Shown here one piece after another: positions 2,014 to 23,440 of a stretch of DNA of 24,000 nt (position 1 is the first letter of the stretch; each line of letters starts with the position of its first letter). The notes under the pieces are model-generated. The model ran no database searches. It was not told the DNA's origin and saw only the letters and a program-made list of their open reading frames with translations. The DNA comes from Desulfobulbaceae bacterium. GTDB lineage: Bacteria > Desulfobacterota > Desulfobulbia > Desulfobulbales > Desulfobulbaceae. The stretch is taken from NCBI GenBank assembly GCA_011391865.1, contig JAABPV010000003.1:14726-38725 (forward strand), written 5' to 3'. The position numbers and the translations under genes are program-made.

Positions 2014-3795
2014 TCACAATAATTCTGGTGGAATGACGCGGACTCGCACGCCGTTTTCTATAACAGAAACCTCTTCTATATTTTCTACTTCTTCGTTAGA
2101 AACAATATCTTTTGATAAATTTTTCTTAAATAGGCTTATTGTATCCTGACTTTCTTTTTGTACAAACTTACAATTTATTCTTTCTCCATTATTTAGAATG
2201 ACATCATATCCTAACACAATCTTATTTTCTACAGGAAAAATAGAGTTTTGATTGACCGCGCGTAATTTATATAAATCTTCCATTTTATATAGTTCATTTA
2301 TGATTTTGATTTTATCAGCAGGAATATTCATGCGTAGATTATCTCCAAAAAGATAAAAGCATCCATTGTTAAACTTAACAATTTCATTGCATGGTATTAT
2401 CCTTCCGTCATTCAAATGAATATCATATCCAAGTATATGTGAATCCTTTTGCTTATTTTCTATAGATTTTTCTTGCGCCTCTGCATAACCTCTTGCTGTA
2501 AGTTCTTTGCTTTGAATTAGAGATGCGCTTTTATTTTCAATGTCAAACGAATTATATGGGTCATTATCAGCTTTATTGATCAATACAATTAAAAATGTAG
2601 TTAAAATAACAACAAAAATACTGGCACTTGCCCTTGCAACTCCCCATTCTTTGTGATCAACAATGGATTTAGTTGATGTATCCCAGAGGGTCGTGCCGGT
2701 TTTTGTAAGTTTTCTATATGCAAACAGGCGTGTAAAAGAAGATAGAAAAGGTATTCCAAAACATTCGCCTTGAATATAGACTAAAAATGCTCTTTTGAAT
2801 GCAACCGGATATGAAAGTTTTTCTTCTTCAATATCTAAAACGCTTATGCCGAATATCCATTTGGCTGGAGTTGTTCCTATGCCTGCTATAAAAGCAGCTT
2901 CCATAGGTATCCATAAAATAGAGAGCATTACTCCAGCTATGATTGGATTACTTATAGCATTGACAAATGATTCTACATTAGAAGGAAAGAATAGTCCGAC
3001 GAAAAACGAAATAATAAAAATAGAAAATATACCAAACATTAAAACATCAGTTGTTCTTGCAAATAAACGTCGCCAAGGGTGATGTATGCCACCAAAAAAT
3101 GTTTTGCTTTGGTCGATTTCATTTGTTTTTCTATCAACGGAGATTTTATTACTCCGAATTTCTTTGGTCTCGCTCAAGAGAACCTTTGGAGGATTTTTTG
3201 ATTCGGCACGATAATATCCTTTGTTGAATTTACTTAATTGTTCCTCTATCTGCTCGTACTTTTTAGCAAGATGCTTCAGTTCCACATCATCGATCATCTT
3301 TAGATTTTTCCCTGTTTTCCTTAGATACCTTCGCACGGAATTGATGATATTTTCTTCATGTACACCATAGAATGCATCTCCTATTCCAGATAATGGAATA
3401 CTCAGAAAAACGAGTGTTCCAAGAATAGCAGGCCCCCATTCACGAGAGAAAACGGCAATAATAGCAAAAATAGAAGAACCTATTGAAGCATATGTCAACG
3501 CAGAAGCAAATTCTGAACGTGCAAAAAATGTAGCTAATTCAAGCGGCGGCAAAAAGATTGACGCATTGACCCGAAAGAACGTCTTATCTTCTTCATCAGC
3601 GAAAAAGTCTGGATTCTTAATAAGAATAGCATTTGCTAAATTTTGGTTGCGAGAATAGATCATCTGACAGTACGCTCTGATCATCGCGGCCACGACAGGC
3701 AGATACCACCACCACAGATTTTCTGTGTCCGTCGTAAAAAACAATACGGTGAACACGATTCCAGCAAAGAGCAAACTCCCTATTAGCGTGATCAT
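2014..3795 (-). CDS. AT-rich multi-pass membrane protein with a central RDD-like domain and two C-terminal repeats
   Basis: 593-aa ORF with an ATG start. RDD-family-like signature: HPWRRLFARTTDVLMFG ... TPAKWIFGISVLD ... TLWDTSTKSIV. Several hydrophobic helices. The C-terminus has two copies of an LGYD(I/V)xLN(D/N)G..I.C module. Composition is strongly AT-rich compared with its neighbours. Confidence 0.7.
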   Translation of the reverse strand: MITLIGSLLFAGIVFTVLFFTTDTENLWWWYLPVVAAMIRAYCQMIYSRNQNLANAILIKNPDFFADEEDKTFFRVNASIFLPPLELATFFARSEFASALTYASIGSSIFAIIAVFSREWGPAILGTLVFLSIPLSGIGDAFYGVHEENIINSVRRYLRKTGKNLKMIDDVELKHLAKKYEQIEEQLSKFNKGYYRAESKNPPKVLLSETKEIRSNKISVDRKTNEIDQSKTFFGGIHHPWRRLFARTTDVLMFGIFSIFIISFFVGLFFPSNVESFVNAISNPIIAGVMLSILWIPMEAAFIAGIGTTPAKWIFGISVLDIEEEKLSYPVAFKRAFLVYIQGECFGIPFLSSFTRLFAYRKLTKTGTTLWDTSTKSIVDHKEWGVARASASIFVVILTTFLIVLINKADNDPYNSFDIENKSASLIQSKELTARGYAEAQEKSIENKQKDSHILGYDIHLNDGRIIPCNEIVKFNNGCFYLFGDNLRMNIPADKIKIINELYKMEDLYKLRAVNQNSIFPVENKIVLGYDVILNNGERINCKFVQKESQDTISLFKKNLSKDIVSNEEVENIEEVSVIENGVRVRVIPPELL

Positions 3796-3986: not shown

Positions 3987-4110
3987 TCACTACGTTTTTA
4001 GGACTGCTCTGTTTTGAACTCTTGCAGGAATTGCAGCCAGGCGGAACGCTGCGTCATGCGCTGCGGAACCGCTTTGTTCCGGCTGAAAACCCGCCGCAGC
4101 CGCCGGAAAA

Positions 4111-4383
4111 CGCGTTTGCATCGCCCTGATTCCAATTGGAACCGGGGCGTTTTCGATTGGAACCGGGCCAAAGTCAATTGGAATCGCCCTGATTCCAGTT
4201 GAAATTGACACGATTCCTGTTGGAATCAGCCCGGTTCCAATTGAAATCGCCCTGATTCCAATTGAAATTGCCCTGATTCCGATTGGAATTACCCCGATTC
4301 CAATCGGAAACGTTCCAATTCCAATTGACTTTGCCCTGATTCCAATCGACATTGACACGATTCCAATTGGAATCAGGGCAAAA
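4111..4383. repeat. Tandem array 1: 12 clear units plus 1 degenerate unit of 21 bp, consensus CCAATTGGAATCGCCCTGATT
   Basis: Units stay in constant phase from 4132, for example 4237 ccaattgaaatcgccctgatt, 4258 ccaattgaaattgccctgatt and 4174 tcaattggaatcgccctgatt. Across unit junctions the sequence forms the 16-bp palindrome GATTCCAATTGGAATC, which is perfect at 4359-4374, separated by 5-bp GCCCT spacers. Confidence 0.9.
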
Positions 4384-4600
4384 CAAGCGTGCTCCGCCGC
4401 AATTGAAACGAGCATCCTTCCGGCGCAGGCGGCGAAAAAACAGAATAATTCAGCAGAGCTGCTGTGAACGCGCAGAGACAGCCTTGCCTGCGGGAAAAGC
4501 GGATGCTTCAGGCTGGGCTGAACAAAAAAACTTCTGCATAAGGTTTATGCTCCTCTTTCCGCCCGGCATACGCAAGAAACTTTTCCGTGAACAGCAGAGG

Positions 4601-7594: not shown

Positions 7595-7638
7595 ATAAGC
7601 ATCCGCCTTTGTCCAAGCGCACAAACAAGAGGGGTGCT

Positions 7639-8961
7639 ATGAAACGGAAGATGCTGCCGCAGGCCGCTGCGGCGTTGCTGCTTTTGTCAGTGGGTGCCGC
7701 GCAGGCTGCCAGCACCATCACCACCATCGGCAGGCATCCCTTTCATCAGCCGCCGCTGCAATCTGCTGAAGAACTCAAGGCGATGATGCGGGAGCGGCAG
7801 TCTGAAATCAAGGAAGGCATGGACAAAGCGGGCAGCGGCCAGCTGCATGAGCTGCTGAAGGCCCAGTTTCCTTTCGCCTCAATCAGCGAGGCGCGGTACG
7901 AGATAGGCACGGTATTTCGCTGGATGCTGTTCAAACGCAATGGCACGGGCGAGGTGAAAGTGGCCCGCGACCTCACTTGGGCTGGAGTCGGCCCGGTTGC
8001 AGGCTACGAGTTTGCCCTGACAGATCAGGACAACTGCCTGAGTTACACGTTTGCTGTGCCGAAAGGGTGCGGCAACTTGGCCCTGCTCAGGACGGAGCGC
8101 ATTCAGAACTGCCCGCCTGCGCCGGAGGAGAAGAAAATCCCAGAACCGGCACCGCCGCCGTCTCTGCCTCCGCAGCCTATTGTCTGCCCCGAAGCCTGCG
8201 CGACAGGTCTTCTTTTGGAAGGCTGTCCGCCGGAATGCCTGCCTGAGCCGAAGACACAGGCACACTGCTTGGAATGTCTGCAAAACTGCCTGCCCGCCTG
8301 TCAAGAGCATCCGAAGGATGTCGGCTGCCCGCCTTATTGCGCCGACTGCCTGAGCCAGTGCGCCCCCTGCCCGGAGGAAGACTGCCCGCCAGTGACCTGC
8401 GCCGATTGTCCGCCGAAATGCGCGGATAATCCAGATGACGACGACTGCCCCGACGAATGCGCGATGCTGGACTGCCCGCCGCCGCCCGTTGCGTGGCAGC
8501 TGCCGCCGTTCCGCCTCATCGGCGACCTTGGCTACTTCAAGCAGACCGATCCGGCGGACTACATCTTTGGCCGCTTCGGCGCGGAGTGGAGTCCCTTTGC
8601 CGCAGGCCATCGGCTGGAGCACATTTCTTTCGCCACCATGCTTGGCGGTGCGTTGAAAGTTGGCGGCTCGGACGGCGACGACGGTTTGGTTTTAGATATG
8701 ATGGCCAATTACAACTGGACAGCAGGATCGGCGGACGGCTGGATCGGCGCAGGTCTGGGCGGCTGGATCACCTCCGGCGATGTGGACGATGACTCCGGCG
8801 ACAGCGACCTTGATTTGATTCTTCAATCCGGTGTCCGTGTCCACGGCGATCCGAAGGCGTTCAATATCTCAGCTTTCTTGGAAATACGAAGCGCGGTCGA
8901 TGAATTCGACAGCTTGGCTGAGTACGGACGCTTCGGGGCCGGGCTGCGGTTCAAATTCTGA
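7639..8961 (+). CDS. Exported Cys/Pro-rich protein with a C-terminal 8-strand beta-barrel-like (OMP-like) domain, paralog 1
   Basis: Start taken at ATG 7639 after GAGGGG. Signal peptide MKRKMLPQAAAALLLLSVGAAQA. A globular N-domain, then a PPAPEEKKIPEPAPPPSLPPQP linker, then about 21 Cys in CP..C/C..C...C spacing (about 8111-8490). The C-terminal domain has alternating hydrophobic residues and ends ...GRFGAGLRFKF, a terminal aromatic as in OMP signatures. Confidence 0.75.
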   Translation: MKRKMLPQAAAALLLLSVGAAQAASTITTIGRHPFHQPPLQSAEELKAMMRERQSEIKEGMDKAGSGQLHELLKAQFPFASISEARYEIGTVFRWMLFKRNGTGEVKVARDLTWAGVGPVAGYEFALTDQDNCLSYTFAVPKGCGNLALLRTERIQNCPPAPEEKKIPEPAPPPSLPPQPIVCPEACATGLLLEGCPPECLPEPKTQAHCLECLQNCLPACQEHPKDVGCPPYCADCLSQCAPCPEEDCPPVTCADCPPKCADNPDDDDCPDECAMLDCPPPPVAWQLPPFRLIGDLGYFKQTDPADYIFGRFGAEWSPFAAGHRLEHISFATMLGGALKVGGSDGDDGLVLDMMANYNWTAGSADGWIGAGLGGWITSGDVDDDSGDSDLDLILQSGVRVHGDPKAFNISAFLEIRSAVDEFDSLAEYGRFGAGLRFKF

Positions 8962-9194: not shown

Positions 9195-10253
9195 ATGAAA
9201 ACAAAAATGGTCTTGCAGACAGCGGCGTTGCTGCTTCTGTCAGCAGGTGTTGCTCATGCCGGTGGCAACAAATTTGGCAAGCAGCAGAAAAACTGGACCT
9301 GCGACGACTGCACACCCGCATGTTTGCAGAATCCTTATGACAAGGGCTGCCCGGACATCTGCAAGTCGCCAGCATGTCAGAATTCTTGCGACTCTTGCCC
9401 TGATTCCTGCAAACAGCAGCCTGGTGCGCCGGGCTGCCCGGAGATATGCAGCGATGTTAAGTGCCAGACCTGCACTGACTGTGCTCCTGAGTGCAAGACC
9501 AGCAACGCTCCGGCAACCTGCCCGGACATCTGCAAGGACATCAAATGCTATAGCTGCGACGACTGTTCAGCTGAATGCATAGAGACCCCGGCTGGTCCGA
9601 ACTGCCCGCCCGCATCCATCTGTGGCGATCTGGAATGCAACATCTGCGACAAACTGCCCAAGAATTGCCCAGCCACCTGCAAGGAAAGCCCGGACGATCC
9701 GGCAAAATGCCCGGCAGAGTGCAAGAGTGTTCCTGAGAAATGCCTGATGCCCGCCGTTGAGCAGGAAAAGGAGCCGGAAACAACGGTTGATCTTGGGCCG
9801 TTCCGCTTCCTCGGCGATGTTGGCTACTACAAGCAGACAGATCCAGCTGACTACATTTTTGGCCGCATCGGTGTGGAGTGGAGTCCTTTCGCCGCAGGCA
9901 GCCGGTTTGAGCAGGTTTCCTTCACCGGCATGATCGGCGCAGCTGCGCAGGTCAAAGGCACGGACGGCGACGACGCGCTGCTGCTTGATGTGATGACCAA
10001 CTACAACTGGCAGGCTGGCGATGTGAACGGCTGGGTTGGTTTGGGCTTGGGCGGCTGGATCACCTCTGGCGACGTGGAAGACGATTCCGGCGACAGCGAC
10101 CTTGACATGATCGTCAATGCTGGTGCCCGCGTGTACGGCGATCCGCAGGCGTTCAACATCTCTGCCTTCTTGGAGATTCGGAGCGCGATCGACGAGTTTG
10201 ACGGCTTGGCCGAGTACGGACGCTTTGGCGGCGGCCTGCGGTTCAAGTTCTAA
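9195..10253 (+). CDS. Exported Cys-rich protein with a C-terminal beta-barrel-like domain, paralog 2
   Basis: AAGGAGAG RBS. Signal peptide MKTKMVLQTAALLLLSAGVAHA. About 30 Cys within aa 36-183 (nt 9300-9743), in roughly 28-aa modules such as CQTCTDCAPECKTSNAPATCPDICKDIK. The C-terminal roughly 150 aa align with paralog 1 at high identity by eye (FR.(I/L)GD.GY.KQTDPADYIFGR.G.EWSPFAAG ... AEYGRFG.GLRFKF). Confidence 0.8.
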   Translation: MKTKMVLQTAALLLLSAGVAHAGGNKFGKQQKNWTCDDCTPACLQNPYDKGCPDICKSPACQNSCDSCPDSCKQQPGAPGCPEICSDVKCQTCTDCAPECKTSNAPATCPDICKDIKCYSCDDCSAECIETPAGPNCPPASICGDLECNICDKLPKNCPATCKESPDDPAKCPAECKSVPEKCLMPAVEQEKEPETTVDLGPFRFLGDVGYYKQTDPADYIFGRIGVEWSPFAAGSRFEQVSFTGMIGAAAQVKGTDGDDALLLDVMTNYNWQAGDVNGWVGLGLGGWITSGDVEDDSGDSDLDMIVNAGARVYGDPQAFNISAFLEIRSAIDEFDGLAEYGRFGGGLRFKF

Positions 10254-10364: not shown

Positions 10365-11555
10365 ATGCTCTTTCCCGCCGCTCTGAAAAAGGCCGTCCGC
10401 GCCGCCCTCTGGTTCGCCTTCCTCACCTTCCCGCTCATGGTGATCAAGGTCAATCCCTACGAGCGCACGGTTGTCTGGCGTTGGCAGAATTTGCTCTATG
10501 TCGCGCTGGCCGCCTTTGTTGGCTCGCTGCTTGCGCAGGCTGCTGCCGCCTTCAAGTCGAGGGGAAAGCCGCAGGCAGCCGCTGCTCCCGCCAAAGACTG
10601 GCTGTTGCTCTTTAACAAGACGGCAGTCCGGCTGCCCGCGCTGGTGCTGCTCCTGCTGGGTCTCGGCCTTTTCCCGCATTTGGTCTCCTCTTATCAGGTC
10701 AGTATTATGATTACGGCCCTGCTCTACGTGATGCTGGGCTTGGGCCTGAACATCGTGGTCGGCATGGCCGGGCTGCTGGATCTCGGCTATGTAGCCTTTT
10801 ACGCAGTTGGAGCATATTCCTACGCCCTGCTCAACCTCCATTTCGGCATCGGCTTCTGGACCGCCCTGCCCATTGGCGGACTCTTGGCCGCGCTCTTCGG
10901 CATATTGCTCGGCTTTCCGGTGCTGCGGCTGCGCGGCGATTATTTAGCCATTGTCACCCTTGGTTTCGGCGAGATCATCCGCCTTGTGCTGGAAAACTGG
11001 ACAGAGTTCTCCCAAGGTCCCAGCGGTATTTCCGGCATCCCCCGGCCCGGTTTTTTTGGCATGGAGCTGTCCTTGCAGCAGTCGGTTATTTATTTGTATT
11101 ATTTGATGCTCGGCATGGTCATCTTCACCATCTTTGCGGTAGGCCGCCTGCGAAATTCGCGCATAGGCCGGGCTTGGGCCGCCCTGCGCGAGGACGAAAT
11201 CGCCTGCCGGGCAATGGGCATCAACAAAACAAAGATCAAGCTGGCCGCCTTCGCCTCCGGCGCATTTTGGGCGGGCATGGCCGGGGTGCTCTTCGCGGCC
11301 AAAACCACCTTTGTCAACCCGGCTTCTTTCACCTTCATGGAGTCGGCGATCATCCTCTGCATTGTCGTGCTGGGCGGCATGGGTTCCATCCCCGGCGTGA
11401 TCATCGCCGCCTTGACGCTGATCCTCCTGCCTGAATATCTGCGCGCCTTGGCCGACTACCGGATGCTGGCCTTCGGCGCGGCCCTTGTGCTGATGATGAT
11501 ATTCCGGCCTGGTGGGTTGTTTCCGGCAGCGAGAATGCGCAGGCAGAAGGGCTGA
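10365..11555 (+). CDS. livM: Branched-chain amino acid ABC transporter permease LivM
   Basis: MLFPAALKKAVRAALWFAFLTFPLMVIKVN... gives the N-terminal extension typical of LivM. The permease core includes GLGLNIVVGMAGLLDLGYVAFYAVGAY, LRLRGDYLAIVTLGFGEI and ALREDEIA. Start moved from the track's 10266, which lies inside the upstream terminator, to ATG 10365. Confidence 0.85.
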   Translation: MLFPAALKKAVRAALWFAFLTFPLMVIKVNPYERTVVWRWQNLLYVALAAFVGSLLAQAAAAFKSRGKPQAAAAPAKDWLLLFNKTAVRLPALVLLLLGLGLFPHLVSSYQVSIMITALLYVMLGLGLNIVVGMAGLLDLGYVAFYAVGAYSYALLNLHFGIGFWTALPIGGLLAALFGILLGFPVLRLRGDYLAIVTLGFGEIIRLVLENWTEFSQGPSGISGIPRPGFFGMELSLQQSVIYLYYLMLGMVIFTIFAVGRLRNSRIGRAWAALREDEIACRAMGINKTKIKLAAFASGAFWAGMAGVLFAAKTTFVNPASFTFMESAIILCIVVLGGMGSIPGVIIAALTLILLPEYLRALADYRMLAFGAALVLMMIFRPGGLFPAARMRRQKG

Positions 11556-11618: not shown

Positions 11619-11939
11619 ATGCCAAATCAGCTTATTGAACTCCAGGATGGTCTGCTTGTCGAGGTGGAGGTACCGCCCGATCAGGTGCGTCAGATTTCCG
11701 GCGGGTTGCCAGAGCAGGTGGACAAATCAATCGATGCTGTCTACACCTTGCTGCTCAACGCCTGCCGTCCAGTGGTTTCAGTCTGGAGTGAACTGAACAA
11801 GGATATGTCTATCTCTGGTGCCGAGGTTGAGCTGCAACTTGGCTTTTCCGCTTCCGGCTCGGTCTTTCTTGCCAAAGCAAACGGCAGCGCGAATCTGAAA
11901 ATCAAGCTGTCAATCTCGCCAAAATCGGATAAGTCCTGA
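11619..11939 (+). CDS. Trypco2-like (trypsin co-occurring domain 2 / CU044_2847-like) small protein
   Basis: 106 aa, GAGAGGAG RBS. N-terminal LIELQDGLLVEVEV and C-terminal AEVELQLGFSASGSVFLAKANGSANLKIKLSI match, from memory, the family pattern (..dG..v.VEV ... vEfGvkls.eaGaviaka..eg.lkvkLtw). The stop is 2 nt before the protease gene. Confidence 0.65.
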   Translation: MPNQLIELQDGLLVEVEVPPDQVRQISGGLPEQVDKSIDAVYTLLLNACRPVVSVWSELNKDMSISGAEVELQLGFSASGSVFLAKANGSANLKIKLSISPKSDKS

Positions 11940-11941
11940 AA

Positions 11942-13666
11942 ATGGAACTCGACAAGCGGGCAATTTTCCTCCTGACCAGTGCCGACAGCGGCAAGAAAGC
12001 CTTCGGCACCGGCTTTGCGGTGGCCTGCAAGGAGGGCAAATTATATCTCCTTACCTGCGCCCATGTGGTGGAGCAGCTTGGCGGCAGAGTTGTCGCCAGC
12101 GGAGCCGATGCCGTCCCGCATGAAGCGGCGATTGAGGCGGCTGGCTCGTCCAACACGGTTGATCTTGCTTTGTTGAGCATCCGTCATGACGGCACAACGC
12201 CGCCGCTGCTCAATCGGCCTGCGAAAGGAAAGCCGGACATGCCGTTTCAGATTCTCGGCTACGGCCCTCATTTTGGAGCCAGAGAAAACTATGTGCTCCG
12301 CGATATTCAAGGCCGTTTGGGCAAGCCGATTTCCTTTAAAGCTGTCGGCATAAAAAGCATAGAGGCATGGGACATTCATGTTGACGACGATGAATTTTCC
12401 AAGCTCCAAGGCGGCTACAGCGGCTCTCCGCTCTGCGATGCCGCAGGAAGGCTGCTCGCGGTTGTCAGTCATAATGCCGATCCTGCCGCTGGACAGCGCG
12501 GTCATGCCGTTGCCGTCGTCAATCTGCAAGCCATCTTCCCGGAGATCGAGCAACTCCTTCCTGCTTTTACCGGTCTGACTGAAGAACATCTTGATCCGGC
12601 GGCCCGCATCAATCAAGCGATGATGCAGCTTTCTGGCCGCGCCTTTGAAATTTGCTCTATTTTTCCCGCTATCGGCTTGGAGCTGGAGCGGATGCGGAAA
12701 GAGGGCATCAGTGAGGACGACAAGGAAATCTTTGCCGAGATCAACAGATTTACTGAACGGACAATTGCTGCCGAAGCCTTTATTTTTTTCTTCAGCAATC
12801 TGGACAACAGAAGAAAAGCCGTCGCCAGCCGTCCTGATTACACAAAGCTCGCCGGGCAGCTGCAAAATGGTCAGGTCATCCTCTGTCTTGGGCAAGAACT
12901 GTCGCATCTGCTTGGCGTAGAGCTGCCTTCAACCGAGGCGATCAAGCAACATCTCAGCCGGAACGGTTTTCATGGCCCTTTGTCAGAACTTTGCGAGCAA
13001 AAAGAGCTGGCCTTGAACAGCAGCCGCGCTGATCTGGTCAATGACATCCGCGCTCTGTTCAAAGCAGACCAGAAAAAATCTCCAGTCGCGCTGCACGAGC
13101 TGCTGGCCAATCTGAAGAATCCATTTTTAGTCATCTCGACCGCCTATGACGATCTGCTGGAGCAAAGTCTGCGCGGCAGGCGGAAATTTGCCGTGATTCA
13201 TCCGAACATGGAAGACAAACGATGTCTGCTGCGCTGTTCCGATCAAAAGGATGTCTTCTGCACCCCGGAAGAACTGTCCAGCTTCAGCCTGCTGGAAAAC
13301 GGCTATGCGGTCATTTATCAGCTCCGGGGCGGCATTTTCAATGACAAAGGCCATCTTCTCCTGTCAGAACGCGATTATTTCACCTTCACCCGCTTCATGC
13401 AGCAGCAGTTTCCTGACTACATCGGCAGCAAACTGAAAAATTCGCTCCATTCGCTCTGGTTCCTCGGCCATCACCCGGAAAGCTGGGAAGAACGCCTGCT
13501 GATTAAGTCGCTTCAGGAGCTGCGGCACGACCGTGCGCCGTCGCTGGCGATTCAGGAAGGTGGCTCTTCGTTTGCCCAGTCGTTCTGGCAGGATAGAAAA
13601 GTGAAGGTCTATGATTGCCCGCTCAAGGACTTTGTGCAGGAACTTGCTTTGTGCGCAGCGAATTGA
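11942..13666 (+). CDS. Trypsin-like (S1/Trypsin_2) serine protease fused to a divergent SIR2_2-like domain
   Basis: 574 aa. Protease triad contexts: LLTCAH41VV, VD74LALL, GGYS160GSP. The C-terminal half (aa about 300-560) follows SIR2_2 order: VILCLGQELS...LPS (in place of flGAGvS..lPsw), LVISTAYDDLLEQ (in place of iiTTNYDdLlE), IYQLRGG...LLLSERDYF (in place of klHGs...lvlTeeDY) and LWFLGHHPESWE (in place of llFiGySl.D). Confidence 0.8.
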   Translation: MELDKRAIFLLTSADSGKKAFGTGFAVACKEGKLYLLTCAHVVEQLGGRVVASGADAVPHEAAIEAAGSSNTVDLALLSIRHDGTTPPLLNRPAKGKPDMPFQILGYGPHFGARENYVLRDIQGRLGKPISFKAVGIKSIEAWDIHVDDDEFSKLQGGYSGSPLCDAAGRLLAVVSHNADPAAGQRGHAVAVVNLQAIFPEIEQLLPAFTGLTEEHLDPAARINQAMMQLSGRAFEICSIFPAIGLELERMRKEGISEDDKEIFAEINRFTERTIAAEAFIFFFSNLDNRRKAVASRPDYTKLAGQLQNGQVILCLGQELSHLLGVELPSTEAIKQHLSRNGFHGPLSELCEQKELALNSSRADLVNDIRALFKADQKKSPVALHELLANLKNPFLVISTAYDDLLEQSLRGRRKFAVIHPNMEDKRCLLRCSDQKDVFCTPEELSSFSLLENGYAVIYQLRGGIFNDKGHLLLSERDYFTFTRFMQQQFPDYIGSKLKNSLHSLWFLGHHPESWEERLLIKSLQELRHDRAPSLAIQEGGSSFAQSFWQDRKVKVYDCPLKDFVQELALCAAN

Positions 13667-14016
13667 GCATTTTTGGTTTTTCGGATGCCAAAATCGCACT
13701 GGAAAACGTCTTGTTTGGAACAGCAAACGTGGCATTCGCGATTCAAAACGTCTCGTTTGACGCTGGCAACGACGTGTTTGCAGCAGCGAATGCCTCATTC
13801 GCAGTGTGAAACGTGGCATTCGCAACAGCGAATGAGGCATTTTGAACAGCGAACGTCTCGTTTTGAACTGGCAACGGCGTGTTCGCAGCAGCAAACGTGG
13901 CATTCGCAGCGTGAAACGTGACGTTTGCAACAGCGAATGAGGCATTTTGAACAGCGAACGTCTCGTTTGAAACCGGCAACGCGGCCTTCGCAGCATGAAT
14001 TGAACAGGCGGAATCA
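13660..14016. repeat. Tandem array 2: 14 clear plus about 3 degenerate units of 21 bp. Each unit is a 17-bp imperfect palindrome GCRAAYG-NNN-CRTTYGC plus a 4-bp linker
   Basis: Units in constant phase, for example 13786 gcgaatgCCTcattcgc-agtg (perfect 7-bp arms), 13744 caaaacgTCTcgtttga-cgct, 13891 gcaaacgTGGcattcgc-agcg, and 13828 = 13933 gcgaatgaggcattttgaaca (identical). A higher-order 105-bp (5-unit) period is visible (13828-13932 versus 13933 onward). The array spans the gap from the stop of 11942-13666 to the ATG at 14016. Confidence 0.9.
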
Positions 14017-17000
14017 TGAACAATCTTTCGGCAGCTTGCTTGGAACCCTACATCGGCCTGAAACCGTTCACCGAGCAGGAGAAAGACCGCTTTTTTGGCC
14101 GCGACCGCGAGACAAGCATTCTGCTGGATAAAATCCGCGCCAACCGCCTGACCTTGCTGCTGGCGGCCAGCGGCGTTGGCAAAAGCTCGCTGCTGCAAGC
14201 AGGCATCATGCCGGCGTTTCGGGCGGACGGCCATGCGGAACTGATCTATCACAACAGCTGGGCTGCCGAGCCGGGCGCGGCACTCAGGGAAAGCATCCTG
14301 AATCATTACGCCAAACGGCCCGGCCTGAGCGGCTTTGGCGGCGATTTCACCCAGCTTTCCCTGAAAGACACCTTGCTGGCCTGCACCCTCTTCGGCAGCG
14401 GCCAGCAGATTCTGCTGCTTGATCAATTTGAAGAGTTTTTCAACTATCAGCGGTTCCAAAAGGGCTTCAAAGCGTTTGTCGAAGAGCTGAGTGCGGCTGT
14501 TCTTGACCGCAGCCTCCCGGCCTGCTTTGTTTTTTCGATGCGGGAGGACTTCGCCCTTGAACTCAACGCCTTCAAGCCCTTTCTGCCCGGCGTGTTTGAC
14601 AGCTATTTCCGCTTGGAGAAGCTGACCCGCGACCAAGCGCGGCTGGCGATTGAGCAGCCGCTACAGCAAATTGGCTGGAGCTTCGCGCCAAAGCAGGACA
14701 GCAAAGAAGGATTGCTGGAGCAGGTGCTGGATGATCTTGCCAAGCGCGAGCAGGAGCGGCAGTTCGGCGTGCAGGAGCTGCTTGCGCTGCAAGAGCTGCC
14801 CTTGCTGGTGGAGCCGCCGCATTTGCAGATTGTCTGCCGGGAGCTGTGGGACAATCATCGGGATGAGGCGGTCAAGCAAATCACCCATGCGGCCTATCAC
14901 AAGGCTGGTCGGGCTGAAGGCATTTTAGAAACCTACTTTCTCCGCAAGATTTGCCAATTCAGCAAAAAGGAGCAGGTGCTTGCCTCAGCCTCTTTTGATC
15001 ATCTCGTTGGCCAGCGGGCCACCAAAGTGGCGCATCCGCTGGAGCGATTGGCCGAATTGACCCGCGCTGATGCCAATGCGCTGAAGCTGATGCTGGATAA
15101 GCTCCAAGATTGCGCTGTGCTGCGCCGCCAAAAGCGCGGTGAAGAGTTCTGGTACGAGCTGTATCACGACATTTTTTCTGAATCCATTGACAAGTGGAAC
15201 CGGGAATTCAAACATCGGCAGCGAAAGAAACGGCTGGCCGTGGGAACTGCTGCGGTGCTGATTGCAGGCGGCTTGTTATTTGCGGGCAACAACTGGCGGG
15301 CGAATTATTATGGCCGGTATTTGCAGCTGAGTCCAAAGGAAAGCATTTCTGATCGGATCGAAGTGTATCAGGGAACAGAGAAGAGTTTAGATTTGTTTCA
15401 GATACGCAACTTTGGCTATGAAACTCTTTTTCTCCGACAGGAGCTTGAGGCGGACAAGCGGTTTGGAACAAGCCTAATTTATGAGAAAAGCGAAATGCAA
15501 GCCGATATAGTCAGCGACATGCCGATGGTGGAGCGCATTCCTTTCTACATGGCGACAGGATTATACGGAAAAGGCCGCGAACTTGCTGACTCCATTTTGC
15601 GGGAGAACAAAGCGGAGAACATTCAGTTCCTTCCAAAGCACTTTGCACAGGTGCGGACAAAGGCGAGCGTTACCCTATTGTCCAGTTTGTTTGAAAAACA
15701 AAAGCTGAGGGGAGCGGTTATTACAGCTTTCGTCCAGTTAAAATCGAAGTCGTCGGTGCCGGATATGATTGAGATCCTGACCGACTCTGGTTATGGCAAA
15801 ATGAACAGATCTGTGCTCGTCCGGCTGATGTTGGAATTGGCGGTACCGGAGATCGTCAAACTCTTAGAGGACAGAGATAAAGATGAAAGTGTGCGGAGTG
15901 CGGCAGTCAGTGCCCTCGGCGAGCTGAAGGCGGACTCGGCGGTGCCGGAGATCGTCAAACTTCTGACGGACAGCGAGTCAAACGTGCGGAGTGCGGCAGC
16001 CAGCACCCTCGGCGAGCTGAAGGCCAAGGCTGCGGCTCAAGATATCGTCAGACTCCTGAGAGACAGCGATATAAACGTGCGGAATGCGGCGGTCAAAGCT
16101 CTCGGCAAACTGAAGGCCAAGGCAGCGGCCCAAGATATCGTCAGGCTCCTGACGGACAGCGATGAATACGTGCGGATAAGTGCGGTCTCCGCCCTCAGTG
16201 AGCTGAAGGCGGACTCGGCGGTGCCGGAGATCGTCAAACTTCTGACGGACAGCAATGAATACGTGCGGAGTGTGGCGGTCGAAGCTCTCGGCAAACTGAA
16301 GGCCAAGGCAGCGGCCCAAGATATCGTCAGGCTCCTGACGGACAGCGATCCAAACGTGCGGAGTGCGGCAGCCAAAGCCATAGGTAAACTGAAGGTGGAC
16401 TCGGCGGTGCCCGATATCGTCAAACTTCTGACGGACAGCAATGAATACGTGCGGAGTACGGCGGTCGAAGCTCTCGGCAAACTGAAGGCCAAGGCAGCGG
16501 CCCAAGATATCGTCAGGCTCCTGACGGACCGCAATAGAAACGTGCAGGAAGAGGCAGCCAAAGCCATAGGTAAACTGAAGGTGGAGGCGGTGACAACGGA
16601 GATTGTCAAGCTCTTGGCGGACAGCGATCCAGACGTGAGGAGTACGGCGGTCGCAGCTCTTCGCAAACTGAAGGCGGAGTCGGCGGTGATAACGGAGATT
16701 ATTAATCTCTTGAGAAACAGCAATGCAGACGTGCGGAGTACGGCGTTTTACGCCCTCGGCGAGCTGAAGGCGGACTCGGCGGTGCCGGAGATCGTCAAAC
16801 TTCTGACGGACAGCGATTCAGACGTGCGGCATAAGGCGGTCTTCGCTCTCGGCAAGATGAAAGCAGAGGCGGCAGTGCCGGAGATCGTCAAACTTCTGAC
16901 GGACAGCAGTTCAGACGTGCGGAGGGCGGCGGTCAAAGCCCTCGGCGAGCTGAAGGCGGACACGGCGGTGTCGGAGATCGCCAGGCTTTTGGAGGACAGC

Positions 17001-18512
17001 AATGAAGAAGTGCGCGGTAGAGCAATCGAAGCCCTCGGCAAGCTGAAGGCGGACTCGGCGGCACCAGAGATCATCAAACTCTGGGCAGGCAGCGATTCCA
17101 ACGTGCGGATTCCGGCGGTTGAAGCTTTCGGCAAGCTGAAGGCGGACTCGGCGGTGCCAGATATCGTTAAGCTTCTGGTGGACAGCGATTACAACGATAA
17201 ATACGTGTGGAGTGGGGCAGTCGAAGCCCTCGGCGAGCTGAAGGCGGACTCAGCGGTGCCGGAGATCGTCAAGCTCCTGACGGACAGCGGTTGGGACGTG
17301 CGGAGGGCGGCGGTCAAAGCCCTCGGCGAGCTGAAGGCGGAAACGGCAGTGCCGGAGATCGTCAGGCTCCTGACGGACAGCGATTCAGACGACGTGCGGC
17401 TTCAAGCAGCTCTTGCTTTGGCAAGGATGAATGATTCCTCTCCTCAGCTTCAGGCTTGGCGGGAGCAGGCGTTCAAGGAGGCGGAGGAGAAAATTGCCGA
17501 TGATGAAAAAAAAGAGGCAGCCGAACTTCTTGCCCCTGTTTTCACCGCGCAGGCCGCAACGCTGCTTGCCCAGCTTATGGATGATGCGGATCAGAATGTG
17601 GCGCAAGAGGCGGTTAAGGCCATTGGCTTTGCCGCCGAATTCCATCCTGAATGGATTCCAAAAGACAAGCTGCTGGCCTTGCTCAAGCATCCTGAAATAG
17701 ACATGCGGGAAACGGCTGTCACCAGCCTTGGCCAGCTCATCGCCTTCCGGGGCGAGAAAAAGGCTGCAAATTTTCCAGAGCTGGATCAGCGCGTCCGCAA
17801 TGTTCTTTCCAGCCTGATCAAAGATACGCAGCAGAAAACCAGCATCCGAGCGACCGCCATTGATGCCTTTGGCGACACCGGACGGGAAGAATGCGCGCAA
17901 TTCCTGTTCGAGCTGCTGCCCGCATTCGACCGCAGCAAGGAGGAATCCCTGCACTCGCGCTGCATCTTCTGGCTTGGCCGCATGAACCACGCCCCGGCCC
18001 GCGACTACGTGGAAGACGAGCTGCGCAAGCTGGAACAGGCCAAGGCGGAATGGCGCGAGCAGCGCGACCAGAACAGCGGCAGCATCGCGGACAAAGATGA
18101 TGCGTGGTGGCAGGTGCGGGAATACCGCCTCGGCAGCGCATTGGCCCGCATCGCTTCAGCAGAACGCGGGATTGAGCTGCTCGGTCATCCGCTGCATTAT
18201 GTACGCCAAGCGGCTGTCCGCGCCTTGGCAGGCAAGGCCGACGCTGACTTGATCGGCAAAATCATCCACGCCCACCAAAACTTCGACCCGGACGACCTGC
18301 CTTCGCCCTTCCCCTATACCGCCTTCCAAGCCATTGACCTCGCATTGTGGAATTTGGAATACACCGGCACGGCGGCTGATCTGGCCAAACTAAAAACCAT
18401 CCTCAGCACCGTCCCAGAAAAAAGCAATATTCCCGGCCAAGACGGGGCAATCAAAGAACGGCTGGAGTGGACGATTGAGCGGCTGCAAAGCAAAACAGCC
18501 GAGCGCAAATAA
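14016..18512 (+). CDS. nSTAND-type (novel STAND) P-loop NTPase, single predicted TM helix, long HEAT/PBS-lyase-like repeat array
   Basis: 1498 aa. N-terminal hallmark PYIGLKPFTEQEKDRFFGRDRE. Walker A LLLAASGVGKSS (K56). Walker B ILLLDQFEEFF. PHLQIVCRELW and WYELYHDIF...W motifs are typical of this STAND clade. KHRQRKKR is followed by LAVGTAAVLIAGGLLFAG (aa 407-424). Then come 17 regular 31-aa units of the form ADSAVPEIVKLLTDSxxxVRxAAVxALGELK, plus degenerate HEAT-like units to the C-terminus. Confidence 0.85.
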   Translation: MNNLSAACLEPYIGLKPFTEQEKDRFFGRDRETSILLDKIRANRLTLLLAASGVGKSSLLQAGIMPAFRADGHAELIYHNSWAAEPGAALRESILNHYAKRPGLSGFGGDFTQLSLKDTLLACTLFGSGQQILLLDQFEEFFNYQRFQKGFKAFVEELSAAVLDRSLPACFVFSMREDFALELNAFKPFLPGVFDSYFRLEKLTRDQARLAIEQPLQQIGWSFAPKQDSKEGLLEQVLDDLAKREQERQFGVQELLALQELPLLVEPPHLQIVCRELWDNHRDEAVKQITHAAYHKAGRAEGILETYFLRKICQFSKKEQVLASASFDHLVGQRATKVAHPLERLAELTRADANALKLMLDKLQDCAVLRRQKRGEEFWYELYHDIFSESIDKWNREFKHRQRKKRLAVGTAAVLIAGGLLFAGNNWRANYYGRYLQLSPKESISDRIEVYQGTEKSLDLFQIRNFGYETLFLRQELEADKRFGTSLIYEKSEMQADIVSDMPMVERIPFYMATGLYGKGRELADSILRENKAENIQFLPKHFAQVRTKASVTLLSSLFEKQKLRGAVITAFVQLKSKSSVPDMIEILTDSGYGKMNRSVLVRLMLELAVPEIVKLLEDRDKDESVRSAAVSALGELKADSAVPEIVKLLTDSESNVRSAAASTLGELKAKAAAQDIVRLLRDSDINVRNAAVKALGKLKAKAAAQDIVRLLTDSDEYVRISAVSALSELKADSAVPEIVKLLTDSNEYVRSVAVEALGKLKAKAAAQDIVRLLTDSDPNVRSAAAKAIGKLKVDSAVPDIVKLLTDSNEYVRSTAVEALGKLKAKAAAQDIVRLLTDRNRNVQEEAAKAIGKLKVEAVTTEIVKLLADSDPDVRSTAVAALRKLKAESAVITEIINLLRNSNADVRSTAFYALGELKADSAVPEIVKLLTDSDSDVRHKAVFALGKMKAEAAVPEIVKLLTDSSSDVRRAAVKALGELKADTAVSEIARLLEDSNEEVRGRAIEALGKLKADSAAPEIIKLWAGSDSNVRIPAVEAFGKLKADSAVPDIVKLLVDSDYNDKYVWSGAVEALGELKADSAVPEIVKLLTDSGWDVRRAAVKALGELKAETAVPEIVRLLTDSDSDDVRLQAALALARMNDSSPQLQAWREQAFKEAEEKIADDEKKEAAELLAPVFTAQAATLLAQLMDDADQNVAQEAVKAIGFAAEFHPEWIPKDKLLALLKHPEIDMRETAVTSLGQLIAFRGEKKAANFPELDQRVRNVLSSLIKDTQQKTSIRATAIDAFGDTGREECAQFLFELLPAFDRSKEESLHSRCIFWLGRMNHAPARDYVEDELRKLEQAKAEWREQRDQNSGSIADKDDAWWQVREYRLGSALARIASAERGIELLGHPLHYVRQAAVRALAGKADADLIGKIIHAHQNFDPDDLPSPFPYTAFQAIDLALWNLEYTGTAADLAKLKTILSTVPEKSNIPGQDGAIKERLEWTIERLQSKTAERK
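15840..17432 (+). repeat. Intragenic 93-bp (31-aa) tandem repeats, 17 units, with a 186-bp two-unit higher-order period
   Basis: Strings such as gcggactcggcggtgccggagatcgtcaaacttctgacggacagc recur almost verbatim. 16209-16394 and 16395-16580 are near-identical at the nucleotide level. Unit types alternate: ADSAVPEIVKLL and AKAAAQDIVRLL. Confidence 0.9.
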
Positions 18513-18537: not shown

Positions 18538-19326
18538 ATGACAGCACCAATCCTCGATGTCATCGGCCTGACGATGAAATTTGGCGGCATCCGCGCCTTG
18601 GACGGGCTTGATCTGCGCGTCCGGCAGGGCGAGATTGCCGCGCTGATCGGCCCCAACGGCGCGGGCAAGACCACCTTTTTCAACTGCGTCACCGGCATCT
18701 GCAAGCCGACTTCCGGCCAAATTCATCTTCATCCGCCCGGCGGCAACGCGGTGCGCCTCAACGGCCTTGCCCCGCACAAGGTGACGCAGGCCGGAATGGC
18801 CCGCACCTTCCAGAACATCCGCCTTTTCCCGGAAATGACCGTGCTGGAAAATGTGATGATCGGGCGGCACTGCCGGACAAAAGCCGGACTGCTCGGCGCG
18901 ATTTTCCGCGACAAACGGACGCGGCAGGAGGAGCAGGAAACGGCAGCCCGCTCTTTTGCTCTACTGGAGAAGACAGGATTGGCTGCGTCTGCCGATGAGC
19001 TGGCGAAAAATCTGCCTTACGGGGCGCAGCGGAAGCTGGAAATCGCCCGCGCCTTGGCCACAGAGCCGCTGCTGCTGCTCTTGGACGAGCCTGCGGCGGG
19101 CATGAATCCGCAGGAAACTGCCGAATTAGACAGCCTGATCTGTGCCATCCGCGATGAAGGCATCTCCATTCTTCTGATCGAGCACGACATGAAATTGGTG
19201 ATGAGCCTCGCTGATCACATCTTTGTCATGGACTATGGCCGGAAAATCGCTGAAGGAAAGCCGGAGGAGGTGCGCCGCTGCCCGGAGGTGATCCGGGCCT
19301 ATCTTGGAGATGAGGCCGAGAGCTGA
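18538..19326 (+). CDS. livG: Branched-chain amino acid ABC transporter ATP-binding protein LivG
   Basis: MTAPILDVIGLTMKFGGIRALDGLDLRVRQGEIAALIGPNGAGKTTFFN (Walker A), the LivG-type signature LPYGAQRKLEIARAL, Walker B LLLLDEPAAGMN and LIEHDM. Start taken at ATG 18538 rather than the track's 18475, which overlaps the upstream gene. Confidence 0.9.
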   Translation: MTAPILDVIGLTMKFGGIRALDGLDLRVRQGEIAALIGPNGAGKTTFFNCVTGICKPTSGQIHLHPPGGNAVRLNGLAPHKVTQAGMARTFQNIRLFPEMTVLENVMIGRHCRTKAGLLGAIFRDKRTRQEEQETAARSFALLEKTGLAASADELAKNLPYGAQRKLEIARALATEPLLLLLDEPAAGMNPQETAELDSLICAIRDEGISILLIEHDMKLVMSLADHIFVMDYGRKIAEGKPEEVRRCPEVIRAYLGDEAES

Positions 19327-19328
19327 CG

Positions 19329-20063
19329 ATGCGAATCTGGGACATCAGTCCGGGTTATCTCAATCGGCAGAGCCTGCTGGGCGAGCACCGGGAACTGCAC
19401 GGCATTGTCTCCATCTTGACGCACGGCAAGAAGGGCTATTCCCGCCACCCGGAAACACTGCGCTGGACAAGCTGCTTGCAGGCTCTGGCGCGGCGGCATC
19501 AGCAGCTTGCCTGCGAGATGGCCTTGCGGGGCTTCCGGGAACAGTCGCCGGTGGCTGGTTCATCTGACGGCGATGCCGCATGGCCTGCGGTGTATCTCGA
19601 CGAGCCTGCGGCGCAGTTTGCGCGGCTCAAAGAAAAATATGCCGGGCGAGAAACAGGCCGGATTCCCCTGCCGCGCAATGCCCAGCAGCTCTGGAGCCAG
19701 CATAAATATTCGGTGCTGGCCCGCGATGTCCAGCTGTATAAGGAAACAGGGCGGCAGACGGCCAGCGGCACGGCGGATTTTACCCAGCTTGCCCGGCAGC
19801 TGTCTGAGCTGCTGCGGCAGCCGCCCACGACTGGAGGTTTGAAAAACGCCCTTCAGCACATGTGGGGCCATGTCGCGGAGCTGCCACCCGCGCCGGAGGA
19901 AAACCCGGCAACTTGGTCGTGGAGAAAACTGCTGGGGGAAACGCAGATGCGGGCCATGCGGCACGGCGAGCCGTACCTGAGCGTCTCCACCGCATTGAGC
20001 GAACTGATGGTGTGGACAGTGGAAATCTTTCCTGATCAGCCGAAGGCCAGCCGCTGCGCATGA
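19329..20063 (+). CDS. Pyrimidine-dimer DNA glycosylase / endonuclease V (DenV-like) family protein with a C-terminal extension
   Basis: MRIWDISPGYLNRQSLLGEHRELHGIVSIL...GYSRHPETLRW matches the characteristic N-terminus of the Pyr_excise family. The ATG is 2 nt after the livG stop. Confidence 0.7.
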   Translation: MRIWDISPGYLNRQSLLGEHRELHGIVSILTHGKKGYSRHPETLRWTSCLQALARRHQQLACEMALRGFREQSPVAGSSDGDAAWPAVYLDEPAAQFARLKEKYAGRETGRIPLPRNAQQLWSQHKYSVLARDVQLYKETGRQTASGTADFTQLARQLSELLRQPPTTGGLKNALQHMWGHVAELPPAPEENPATWSWRKLLGETQMRAMRHGEPYLSVSTALSELMVWTVEIFPDQPKASRCA

Positions 20064-22468: not shown

Positions 22469-23440
22469 TTAACTACGCTGAATAATTTGTTCCGGGTTAT
22501 TTTTTTGGATGTCCAAAATTTTTTTTGTCACGTTCAGCCAATCTACTCCAAATCTTTTTTTGTTCTCTGGAAAAATATCCATCATAAATATTGCGTCCCA
22601 TCCTTGCTGTGTTATGTTAGCTTGGAAGGATGGAGAATATGCTTCTGCAAGCCTTCTCTTTTCTTCTGGTGACAACCTTTTTTTCTTGTTTTCCTTGAGA
22701 AATTGCTCACGCGTCCGATTCATTCTTGCGACTCGCTGATCTTCTCGCATTGAAACAATTAAATTTTCTAACATTTCATCATAGAGAAGAACAGGAAATA
22801 TTGTTCTGTCAATTTTGCAATTTACTTCATTAGATGCACTAACTATAGCATCGTCAAAATTTGTTGGTTGATCTGATAAACGTCTATAAAACTCTTGCGT
22901 CGAATCGAGAACCTGTTTTGGTTTTAAATCATCATAAGGCCCTGCGATCACAAGGGCAGGAGCTGTTAGCCTTGATTCTTTCAATGCCTTAACAAAGGTT
23001 AAAATCCCTGCATATCCTTGACAAGCTGCGATCAAGACGATCAAATTAAATCGCGTTGCAATATTCAATCTTTGAAGAGGGTTAGTTAATTCATCCCATG
23101 TCAGCCCATTTACTCCTTTTTCTCTGTCCGACAATCCTTTCGTTGAACCATGCGCCTCAAGGTGAATAAGCGGAATTATTCCGTGATGCTCGGCATCTGT
23201 CGCGGCCCGCTCTATCGCGGCTAGCACTTCATCTTTGCTTGAACATTTCCAATATATTGATTGAAAATATTTATATTCCTGCATCCGTTTATGCAGCTCT
23301 CTCCCTGTATGAGGGTCATTTGACGACAACCACTCTATAATCCAAATATGTGTTGGCCTCTTGAAATAACCTTCCTTTGGCAATCCGTAAAGCTCGTCTA
23401 TCAATTTTTGTTCATCTTCTGTCAATTTAATGTTATCCAT
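22469..23440 (-). CDS. AT-rich hypothetical protein with a caspase/CHAT-like His-Cys dyad arrangement
   Basis: 323-aa ORF with an ATG start and a visibly lower GC content than its neighbours. IIPLIHLEAH97GSTKGL and FNLIVLIAAC140QGYAG each follow a hydrophobic strand, as in clan CD peptidases (xHG ... xxC-x-G). The C-terminal part is Lys/Arg/Glu-rich and helical. Confidence 0.6.
   Translation of the reverse strand: MDNIKLTEDEQKLIDELYGLPKEGYFKRPTHIWIIEWLSSNDPHTGRELHKRMQEYKYFQSIYWKCSSKDEVLAAIERAATDAEHHGIIPLIHLEAHGSTKGLSDREKGVNGLTWDELTNPLQRLNIATRFNLIVLIAACQGYAGILTFVKALKESRLTAPALVIAGPYDDLKPKQVLDSTQEFYRRLSDQPTNFDDAIVSASNEVNCKIDRTIFPVLLYDEMLENLIVSMREDQRVARMNRTREQFLKENKKKRLSPEEKRRLAEAYSPSFQANITQQGWDAIFMMDIFPENKKRFGVDWLNVTKKILDIQKNNPEQIIQRS

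Follow-up and report, generated by a model that had tools for sequence, protein, structure and literature searches.

Between the branched-chain amino-acid transport genes livM and livG, a 24,000-nucleotide (nt) stretch of DNA from a Desulfobulbaceae bacterium (contig JAABPV010000003.1, positions 14,726 to 38,725; hereafter the window) carries a cassette of three genes, here called A, B and C. The cassette is probably a nucleoside triphosphate (NTP)-dependent conflict module, of the immune or abortive-infection kind and of the Pepco-protease class, that occupies a variable site specific to cable bacteria. Its genes identify the source of the window as Candidatus Electronema, a cable bacterium of fresh water. 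A UniRef entry from Ca. Electronema sp. matches protein A at 100% identity, and livM of Ca. Electronema sp. JC shares 92% identity with livM of the window. The three open reading frames (ORFs) lie on the plus strand and fill the interval between the livM stop (position 11555) and the livG start (18538); both of these positions, and the common strand of the genes, agree with an initial annotation of the raw sequence. The same annotation placed the stop of A and the start of B 2 nt apart, as is the case, and had seen no terminator at the junctions; a simple consensus scan likewise returned no terminator-like site at livM/A, B/C or C/livG. A Shine-Dalgarno sequence (GAGGAG) lies 8 nt 5′ of gene A.

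In the proposed mechanism, C would be a membrane-anchored nSTAND1 ATPase whose hypervariable HEAT solenoid senses an invader- or damage-derived cue. Ligand binding would lead to NTP-dependent oligomerisation of the cytoplasmic NTPase modules, by analogy with the Avs and NLR STANDs. The catalytically degenerate SIR2-fold domain of B would then serve to recruit or cluster this protein, activating its serine protease. B would then cut A after I99 and free the peptide SPKSDKS, whereupon a pre-formed Pepco β-barrel oligomer could become a pore that permeabilises the membrane and so kills the cell or arrests it. The cleavage step is suggested by family membership and by the conserved ...L-x-I/L-x-P-K C-terminus of A. 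More generally, the observed basis for these putative functional steps is the intact protease triad and NTPase motifs, the absence of the SIR2 catalytic residues, the strict co-occurrence of B and C, with overlapping genes in most relatives, the variability of the sensor and the family assignments.

Conflict cassettes of this kind were predicted in 2020-21, and the effector logic was shown in 2025 for a different architecture. Although the initial annotation knew of no experimental characterisation, the Trypco-protease pair has now been characterised (bioRxiv 2025.11.14.688446); the exact split architecture is new. Specifically, the novel elements are the split protease-pseudo-SIR2 protein, the hypervariable transmembrane (TM)-HEAT sensor, the liv hotspot and a 21-nt repeat array. 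The cassette would thus add an architecture to the protease-licensed pore effectors, in which a separate protease with a pseudo-SIR2 domain is coupled to a membrane-spanning STAND with a strain-variable sensor. If this is correct, it opens the questions of how a separate protease reaches a STAND oligomer, whether STAND receptors signal across a membrane and how filamentous multicellular bacteria protect a shared filament.

Domain composition of the three proteins

Protein A, of 106 amino acids (aa), was at first described as Trypco2-like. Pfam instead assigns it to Trypco1 (E 4.5e-9; 37.2 bits against a cutoff of 24.6; residues 6-98 aligned), and NCBIfam to CU044_2847 (30.5 bits against a cutoff of 23). 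The profile searches placed Trypco1, Trypsin_2, SIR2_2, nSTAND1 and HEAT above their Pfam cutoffs in the cassette, but returned no Trypco2 match. The best-conserved part of A among 40 homologues is its C-terminus, A91-N92-L93-K-I/V-K-L97-S-I99-S-P101-K102, which is followed by three to five variable, mainly charged residues. L93 and P101 are invariant, K102 is nearly so, and position 99 is I or L in all nine locus homologues. In the window this end reads ...ANLKIKLSI99-SPKSDKS, an Ile followed by a short, charged, Pro-containing tail of 7 aa, and the I99|S100 bond (KLSI|SPKSDKS) is a candidate protease cleavage site. Pepco proteins have about 100-120 aa and are encoded just before a trypsin-like or caspase-like protease; A likewise lies directly 5′ of the trypsin-like protease B, an order that recurs in all cable-bacterial, Methylococcales and JGI loci retrieved. 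An AlphaFold2 (AF2) monomer of A, built with database homologues, is of low confidence (predicted local distance difference test, pLDDT, 63). It places strands at residues 3-7, 13-17, 68-76 and 92-99 and helices at 31-54 and 56-63, and the hydrophobic moment of the helix is 0.53, that of the last strand 0.97; in this model, that strand (about 91-99) is amphipathic and the tail (100-106) is disordered.

These features can be compared with those of the Pepco (Trypco1/2) system of Streptomyces subrutilus, which consists of SsPepco and SsAvs4 (bioRxiv 2025.11.14.688446). There, Pepco forms 9-10-mer β-barrels that are resistant to sodium dodecyl sulfate, and the Avs4-linked protease removes the C-terminal tail of SsPepco after a conserved Ile. 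A construct stopping exactly at that Ile is toxic, the catalytic Ser is required for toxicity, and “transmembrane STAND ATPases” are among the sensors tied to Pepco-linked proteases. Both systems have a small Trypco/Pepco protein directly 5′ of a trypsin-like protease that works with a STAND sensor, and both place an Ile/Leu just before a short, charged, Pro-containing C-terminal tail. In the present cassette, however, the protease is separate from the STAND and carries a pseudo-SIR2 domain, the STAND is an nSTAND1-TM-HEAT protein rather than Avs4, and the tail of A has 7 aa rather than about 20. By analogy, A is predicted to be a protease-activated pore-forming effector. The initial annotation had regarded it as either a regulator or a substrate; it is most likely the substrate of protease B.

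The putative sensor, C, matches nSTAND1 with 156.7 bits against a Pfam cutoff of 27.1. The match starts at residue 11, and C is without an N-terminal effector domain. Among 11 homologues there is no variation in Walker A (S52-GVGKS-S58) or Walker B (L135-DQFEE-140), and little or none in F26-F27-x-R29 and P268-HLQIVC-274..LW278, in agreement with the nSTAND signature first read from the gene (FFGRD / GVGKS / DQFEE / LQIVCRELW). A single hydrophobic segment at aa 407-425, LAVGTAAVLIAGGLLFAGN, follows the basic stretch KHRQRKKR. The TM region is in the conserved consensus of all 11 aligned N-terminal sequences, and in seven of the eight comparison homologues scanned, those of Planctomycetes and Methylococcales among them, hydropathy peaks in a segment of this type. 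The positive-inside rule predicts that the α-solenoid that follows the TM helix, some 1070 residues long, is probably extracytoplasmic (periplasmic). The repeat sensor of the initial annotation is present in this solenoid as about 17 canonical 31-aa HEAT repeats, in which Tandem Repeats Finder (TRF) counts 16 copies of period 93.

Comparison with two close relatives of the window, L001 and L015, separates C into regions of very different conservation. In 100-aa bins, the NTPase is 94-100% identical to that of L001 and 92-98% identical to that of L015; over residues 401-1100 identity to the two drops to 29-67%, with indels, and over the last 400 residues it returns to 83-91% in L001. On this alignment the HEAT region is hypervariable, as a diversifying receptor surface would be expected to be. 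Relatives of the NTPase carry HEAT or FGE-sulfatase domains and are found mostly in sulfur bacteria of filamentous growth, such as Beggiatoa, Thiothrix, Thioploca and Electrothrix, which matches a prediction of Kaur et al. (2020).

Conceivably, the same parts could serve another purpose, as a developmental, kin-discrimination or programmed-cell-death device of the multicellular filament that sacrifices damaged or invaded cells once the HEAT solenoid, provided that it lies in the shared periplasm, picks up an extracytoplasmic cue. The basic stretch before the single TM helix of C, from which an N-in/C-out topology is predicted, would suit such a device, as would the concentration of the NTPase family in filamentous multicellular bacteria and the multicellularity frame in which Kaur et al. 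(2020) place such systems. The topology is nevertheless a prediction, and the hypervariability of the sensor between strains, together with the restriction-type cargo found at the same hotspot (see below), fits an arms race with parasites better. This purpose therefore appears unlikely, and a conflict function is preferred.

Protein B combines two domains, both well modelled by AF2 (pLDDT 84.8; residues 1-200, protease; about 300-574, SIR2-fold). An exact-sequence lookup of B gave no match, and a 96%-identical relative, P0001, was used in its place. The protease half matches Trypsin_2 with 41.1 bits against a cutoff of 27.6 and resembles Rv3671c (Foldseek E 2e-10) and DegS, with TM(target) values of 0.6-0.69 to Rv3671c/DegS. 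The Ser protease triad that had been read from the sequence, H41, D74 and S160, is invariant across 29 homologues. The C-terminal half, initially called SIR2_2-like, indeed matches that family (45 bits against a cutoff of 24.5), although the catalytic Asn and His are replaced. The closest structure to residues 300-574 or so is KomC, the Kongming SIR2 NADase (PDB 8zsf, 9xvc; Foldseek TM(target) 0.69-0.71), which is also the best profile match. Reaching KomC from sequence required a profile of 14 sequences; a single-sequence search of the PDB with this half gave only chance matches to T-cell receptor chains.

In the profile alignment, the KomC motifs VGAGVS and TTNYD align to L-G317-Q-E319-L-S and S-T-A401-Y-D of B, and H146-G aligns to R462-G463, the deposited H146N and H146A mutants being included. 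B therefore has E319 for the second Gly of GAG, Ala for the TTNYD Asn and Arg for H146. Throughout the 29 homologues the GAG motif is degenerate (G-Q/T/S/A/I-E/D/N), the Asn position is A, G, S or C, and R462 is invariant at the position of the catalytic His; further invariant residues of the domain are E476, Y479 and W515-E516-R518. Because three hallmark NAD-binding and catalytic motifs are degenerate, the domain is read as a pseudo-enzyme rather than an NADase effector, probably serving as an adaptor, scaffold or ligand-binding module.

It could also be that B is a dual effector, in which the SIR2-like half is an active NAD+-consuming enzyme with a non-canonical site and NAD+ depletion is the main means of killing. 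Such activity would be in keeping with the SIR2_2 profile and KomC-like fold, with the strong conservation of the domain and its many invariant residues, and with the frequency of SIR2 as a STAND-linked effector, as in Avs5, ThsA and DSR. The motif degeneracy in 29/29 homologues makes it very unlikely, and in paralogous cable-bacterial proteases (protease domain about 60% identical) a C-terminal FGE-sulfatase, HEAT, VWA, TIR or other domain holds the place of SIR2. Pepco genes are found on contigs equal in length to those of paralogous proteases with FGE, HEAT or VWA C-termini, which hints at shared contigs without proving them; Pepco and protease would then form the constant pair.

Table 1. 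Positions of the cassette genes, their domains and the flanking liv genes in the window
Feature	Position	Strand	Basis
livM, branched-chain amino-acid ABC permease, left flank	10365..11555	+	Pfam BPD_transp_2 5.2e-50; NCBIfam LivM 425 bits; ATG 10365 = probable start
Gene A, Pepco/Trypco1 small protein, 106 aa	11619..11939	+	Pfam Trypco1 and NCBIfam CU044_2847
Gene B, whole, serine protease + SIR2-fold	11942..13666	+	
Gene B, N-terminal S1 (HtrA/MarP-like) serine protease domain	11942..12541	+	Pfam Trypsin_2 3.7e-10; Foldseek
Gene B, helical linker, about aa 200-300	12542..12838	+	AF2 helices 202-295; no Pfam match
Gene B, C-terminal probable pseudo-SIR2 domain	12839..13666	+	Pfam SIR2_2 1.5e-11; profile alignment and Foldseek to KomC
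B-C array, 14 x 21-nt units	13701..13994	n/a	Repeat units with imperfect palindrome
Gene C, whole, nSTAND1-TM-HEAT	14016..18512	+	
Gene C, nSTAND1 NTPase module, Walker A K56, Walker B D136/E139-E140	14016..15233	+	Pfam nSTAND1 1.7e-45
Gene C, predicted TM helix, aa 407-425	15234..15290	+	Hydropathy 1.79 over 19 aa
Gene C, HEAT repeats of PBS-lyase type, about 17 canonical copies of 31 aa	15855..17453	+	HEAT_2 537 bits; TRF
Gene C, C-terminal degenerate α-solenoid	17454..18512	+	HEAT-type matches; 83-91% identity to L001
livG, ABC ATPase, right flank	18538..19326	+	Pfam ABC_tran and BCA_ABC_TP_C; NCBIfam LivG 313 bits

Distribution of the cassette and the livM-livG junction

A LivM scan of one genome per species yielded 80 loci, 73 of which carry both livM and livG. 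The two genes adjoin in 67 of these 73, from Desulfobacterota and other groups, so that the interval is empty in relatives, as the initial annotation had proposed to check; all six exceptions are cable-bacterial. Where the genes adjoin, their spacing is estimated at -31 to +52 nt (median about 28), and weaker paralogous matches, which would fit livH and livF, usually lie on either side. An ATGA shared by the two ends of the interval had been offered as a weak hint of insertion into an ancestral livM/livG overlap. The shared 4-mer is uninformative, and the idea was rejected, as the uninterrupted relatives have a short spacer and no conserved overlap.

Cable-bacterial livM loci depart from this arrangement. 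The livHMGF operon is fragmented throughout this clade: in none of the loci is livH adjacent to livM, livF is likewise not next to livM/livG, and livG lies at a distance of 1.4-7 kb or is not present within 8 kb. Electronema sp. PJ and six metagenomic relatives share with the window the order livM-A-(VapBC)-B-C-livG, whereas in Electronema sp. JM livM-A-B-C precedes an ADP-ribosylglycohydrolase gene and livG is missing. At the livM junction of Electrothrix marina there are instead a 228-aa ORF without known function and an Mrr-type restriction nuclease (Mrr_cat), at that of E. laxa two ORFs without known function and a PDDEXK_2 protein, and at that of another Electrothrix two small ORFs. Housekeeping genes lie 3′ of livM in Electronema sp. 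JC and E. halotolerans, and in Electrothrix YB6, where the downstream genes are unannotated, livG was not found within 8 kb of livM. By this synteny, livM|livG is a clade-specific integration hotspot in cable bacteria at a junction that is otherwise normally invariant.

The cassette itself also occurs elsewhere. A-B-C occurs in Electrothrix YB6 (near or after lepA), in E. communis (after a carbonic anhydrase gene) and, as a third context, in a metagenome, as well as in Methylococcales (after an argininosuccinate-lyase-type gene) and in another JGI metagenome. B and C always co-occur, and a Planctomycetes metagenome-assembled genome (JAAEOT010000090) contains two consecutive pairs of the B-C type (protease-SIR2-like plus nSTAND1-HEAT). 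Since the cassette is found in at least five unrelated contexts and is absent from the 67 contiguous livM-livG loci, A-B-C is, on this comparative evidence, a mobile module independent of liv. Of the inserted immune cassette that was initially envisaged, a conflict-type module foreign to the liv operon is therefore retained. A recent insertion into an intact livHMGF operon is not, because the same adjacency of livM and cassette exists in a lineage in which B has only 63% identity to that of the window, and the insertion is thus not recent in this genome. Its co-direction with livM and livG, the lack of detected terminators and a livM-cassette adjacency common to four Electronema-type lineages might suggest that the cassette belongs to a liv-type transport locus in the clade, as a conserved part with an accessory or regulatory role. 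This is hardly credible given the synteny, with the non-liv contexts, the related liv loci that lack it and the unrelated cargo, or nothing, at the livM|livG junction of other cable bacteria.

Two observations concern companions of the cassette. A VapB/VapC (PIN) pair, absent from the window, lies between A and B in L001-L006 (96% identical) and in Electrothrix YB6, and just 5′ of A in L012 (coordinates 4384-4985 in L001, 9390-9991 in L008 and 8384-9036 in L012). Between loci in which each B shares only about 53% identity with the B of the window, identity is 81-84% for VapC and 66-89% for VapB; VapBC is thus a recurrent, better-conserved companion. The Planctomycetes locus (L097) has further Trypsin_2 genes and a Lipase_3 gene and no Trypco1, and may be a variant with another protease-licensed effector.

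Relation to known conflict systems

For the NTP-dependent conflict systems of multicellular prokaryotes, Kaur and colleagues designated Trypco1 and Trypco2 as obligate companions of trypsin-like peptidases (eLife 2020, PMC7159879), and they defined nSTAND1 in a later paper (eLife 2021, PMC8195603). The cassette shares with these systems the Trypco-trypsin pairing, the combination of nSTAND1 with a C-terminal repeat or FGS sensor and the enrichment in filamentous bacteria. Their effectors are linked to the NTPase via shared effector-associated domains, whereas none is detectable on B or C, and the searched text of the two papers holds no mention of a SIR2-fold adaptor.

Other systems offer partial parallels. 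In contrast to the experimentally defined antiviral Avs STANDs, which carry an N-terminally fused effector and are activated by a phage protein, C has no such fused effector, and the protease and effector are separate genes. The trypsin-MBL modules of Avs2 and Hachiman (bioRxiv 2025.09.03.673762; 2026.08.25.746987) follow a similar path from sensor to protease to the licensing of a latent death effector, but theirs is an MBL-fold nuclease and the protease is fused to the sensor. Bacterial gasdermin systems likewise use a protease that removes a C-terminal inhibitory peptide to release a membrane pore; the pore protein is unrelated, and Pepco barrels, unlike gasdermins, are assembled before cleavage (bioRxiv 2025.11.14.688446).

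Several points weigh against assigning the cassette to a Pepco-type conflict function. SsPepco, at 117 aa, has an amphipathic helix at its N-terminus, with L10 and L17 as the tested residues, and ends in a tail of about 20 aa (bioRxiv 2025.11.14.688446), whereas A has its 7-aa tail and a central helix (33-60, pLDDT 63), so that the helix position differs between the A model and SsPepco. The preprint also merges Trypco1 and Trypco2, and SsPepco may be of either type. C is without an N-terminal effector-associated domain through which B could dock, and a periplasmic position of the HEAT region would make an Avs-type trigger, a phage protein, less obvious. Finally, PADLOC-DB v2, one of the checks that had been proposed, has no model for A and gave only weak protease and HEAT matches for B and C; no curated defence system therefore covers the cassette.

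Cable bacteria are multicellular filaments, not yet obtainable in pure culture, in which the periplasm is continuous along the filament. A more specific and rather doubtful version of the conflict module takes this into account. With its HEAT solenoid in the filament-continuous periplasm, C could act as a trans-membrane STAND receptor that relays strain-specific extracytoplasmic recognition via the dead SIR2 adaptor to the protease, resulting in Pepco-pore suicide of single cells, and the array between B and C would set the B:C ratio.

The B-C array and neighbouring genes

Each unit of the array between B and C is an imperfect palindrome, RAAYG-NNN-YRTTYG, and the 14 units of the window contrast with a different number in L015. 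The B-C spacer measures 290-349 nt in the window, L001-L006 and L015, and the array is confined to these. In the relatives examined at this junction the stop of B overlaps the start of C, and in most relatives the overlapping genes would be translationally coupled. The sequence GAATTGARCA brackets the array, once in the last codons of B and once 10 nt 5′ of the ribosome-binding region of C, which suggests local expansion of junction sequence. The minimal inference is that the array is a lineage-specific insertion or expansion that uncouples the translation of B and C in one Electronema sublineage.

The initial annotation described the array as one of intergenic hairpins. The units are present, but their folding as local mini-hairpins is supported in part only: 10 of 14 pair centrally, and the minimum-free-energy fold of the array RNA (-131.7 kcal/mol, z -3.2) consists mainly of long-range pairing between units. 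Rfam has no family for the array, with only sub-threshold chance matches in the region, and neither a sigma-70-like promoter nor a terminator was found inside it. There was no evidence of a coding role. All three plus frames contain stops, and in the one open minus frame, which reads as heptads (xNxxFxx), the six in-frame substitutions show no third-position bias.

A degenerate three-unit pattern derived from the array matched 117 metagenome contigs from soil, freshwater, marine and gut sources. All but one (116/117) contain period-21 arrays, with a median of 6.9 copies, a maximum of 33 and a GC content of 0.23-0.67; some lie within large ORFs and many within short open segments. None of the 117 could be aligned to the window array or adjoins protease/STAND genes. 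No array family is claimed, because the pattern itself forces the shared N-x-x-F reading.

Repeats of the same period occur elsewhere in these loci. A second 21-nt array in the window (4120-4374) has about 12 units of CAATTG-GAATC-GCCCT-GATTC with internal palindromes and lies inside an ORF on the minus strand (3990-4415), which reads as PIGIRAI-type heptads and has no Pfam match. Other arrays of at least five copies are present in L015 (7610-7769) and L020 (219-392), and none of more than three copies was seen in the non-cable Desulfobacterota loci.

The surroundings of livM and livG in the window have further distinct features. Where livH would be expected, directly 5′ of livM, are two paralogous genes (7609-8961 and 9195-10253) with a mutual identity of about 48-50%. 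Pfam and NCBIfam gave no match for either, and both are kept in L001 and Electronema sp. TJ; the N-terminus of the second resembles a signal peptide, and one of its regions, with CPxxC/CxxC repeats, is very rich in Cys. The gene abutting livG (19329-20063), in the expected place of livF, contains a pyrimidine-dimer DNA glycosylase domain and DUF1722. L001, roughly 90% identical, has a MurG-like glycosyltransferase at this position, and the right flank is thus also rearranged between close strains. Two low-GC islands on the minus strand encode a 593-aa protein with an RDD domain (2014-3795) and a 323-aa protein of no significant family (22469-23440); with a GC content of 0.33-0.39 against a background of 0.55-0.62, both were probably acquired horizontally.

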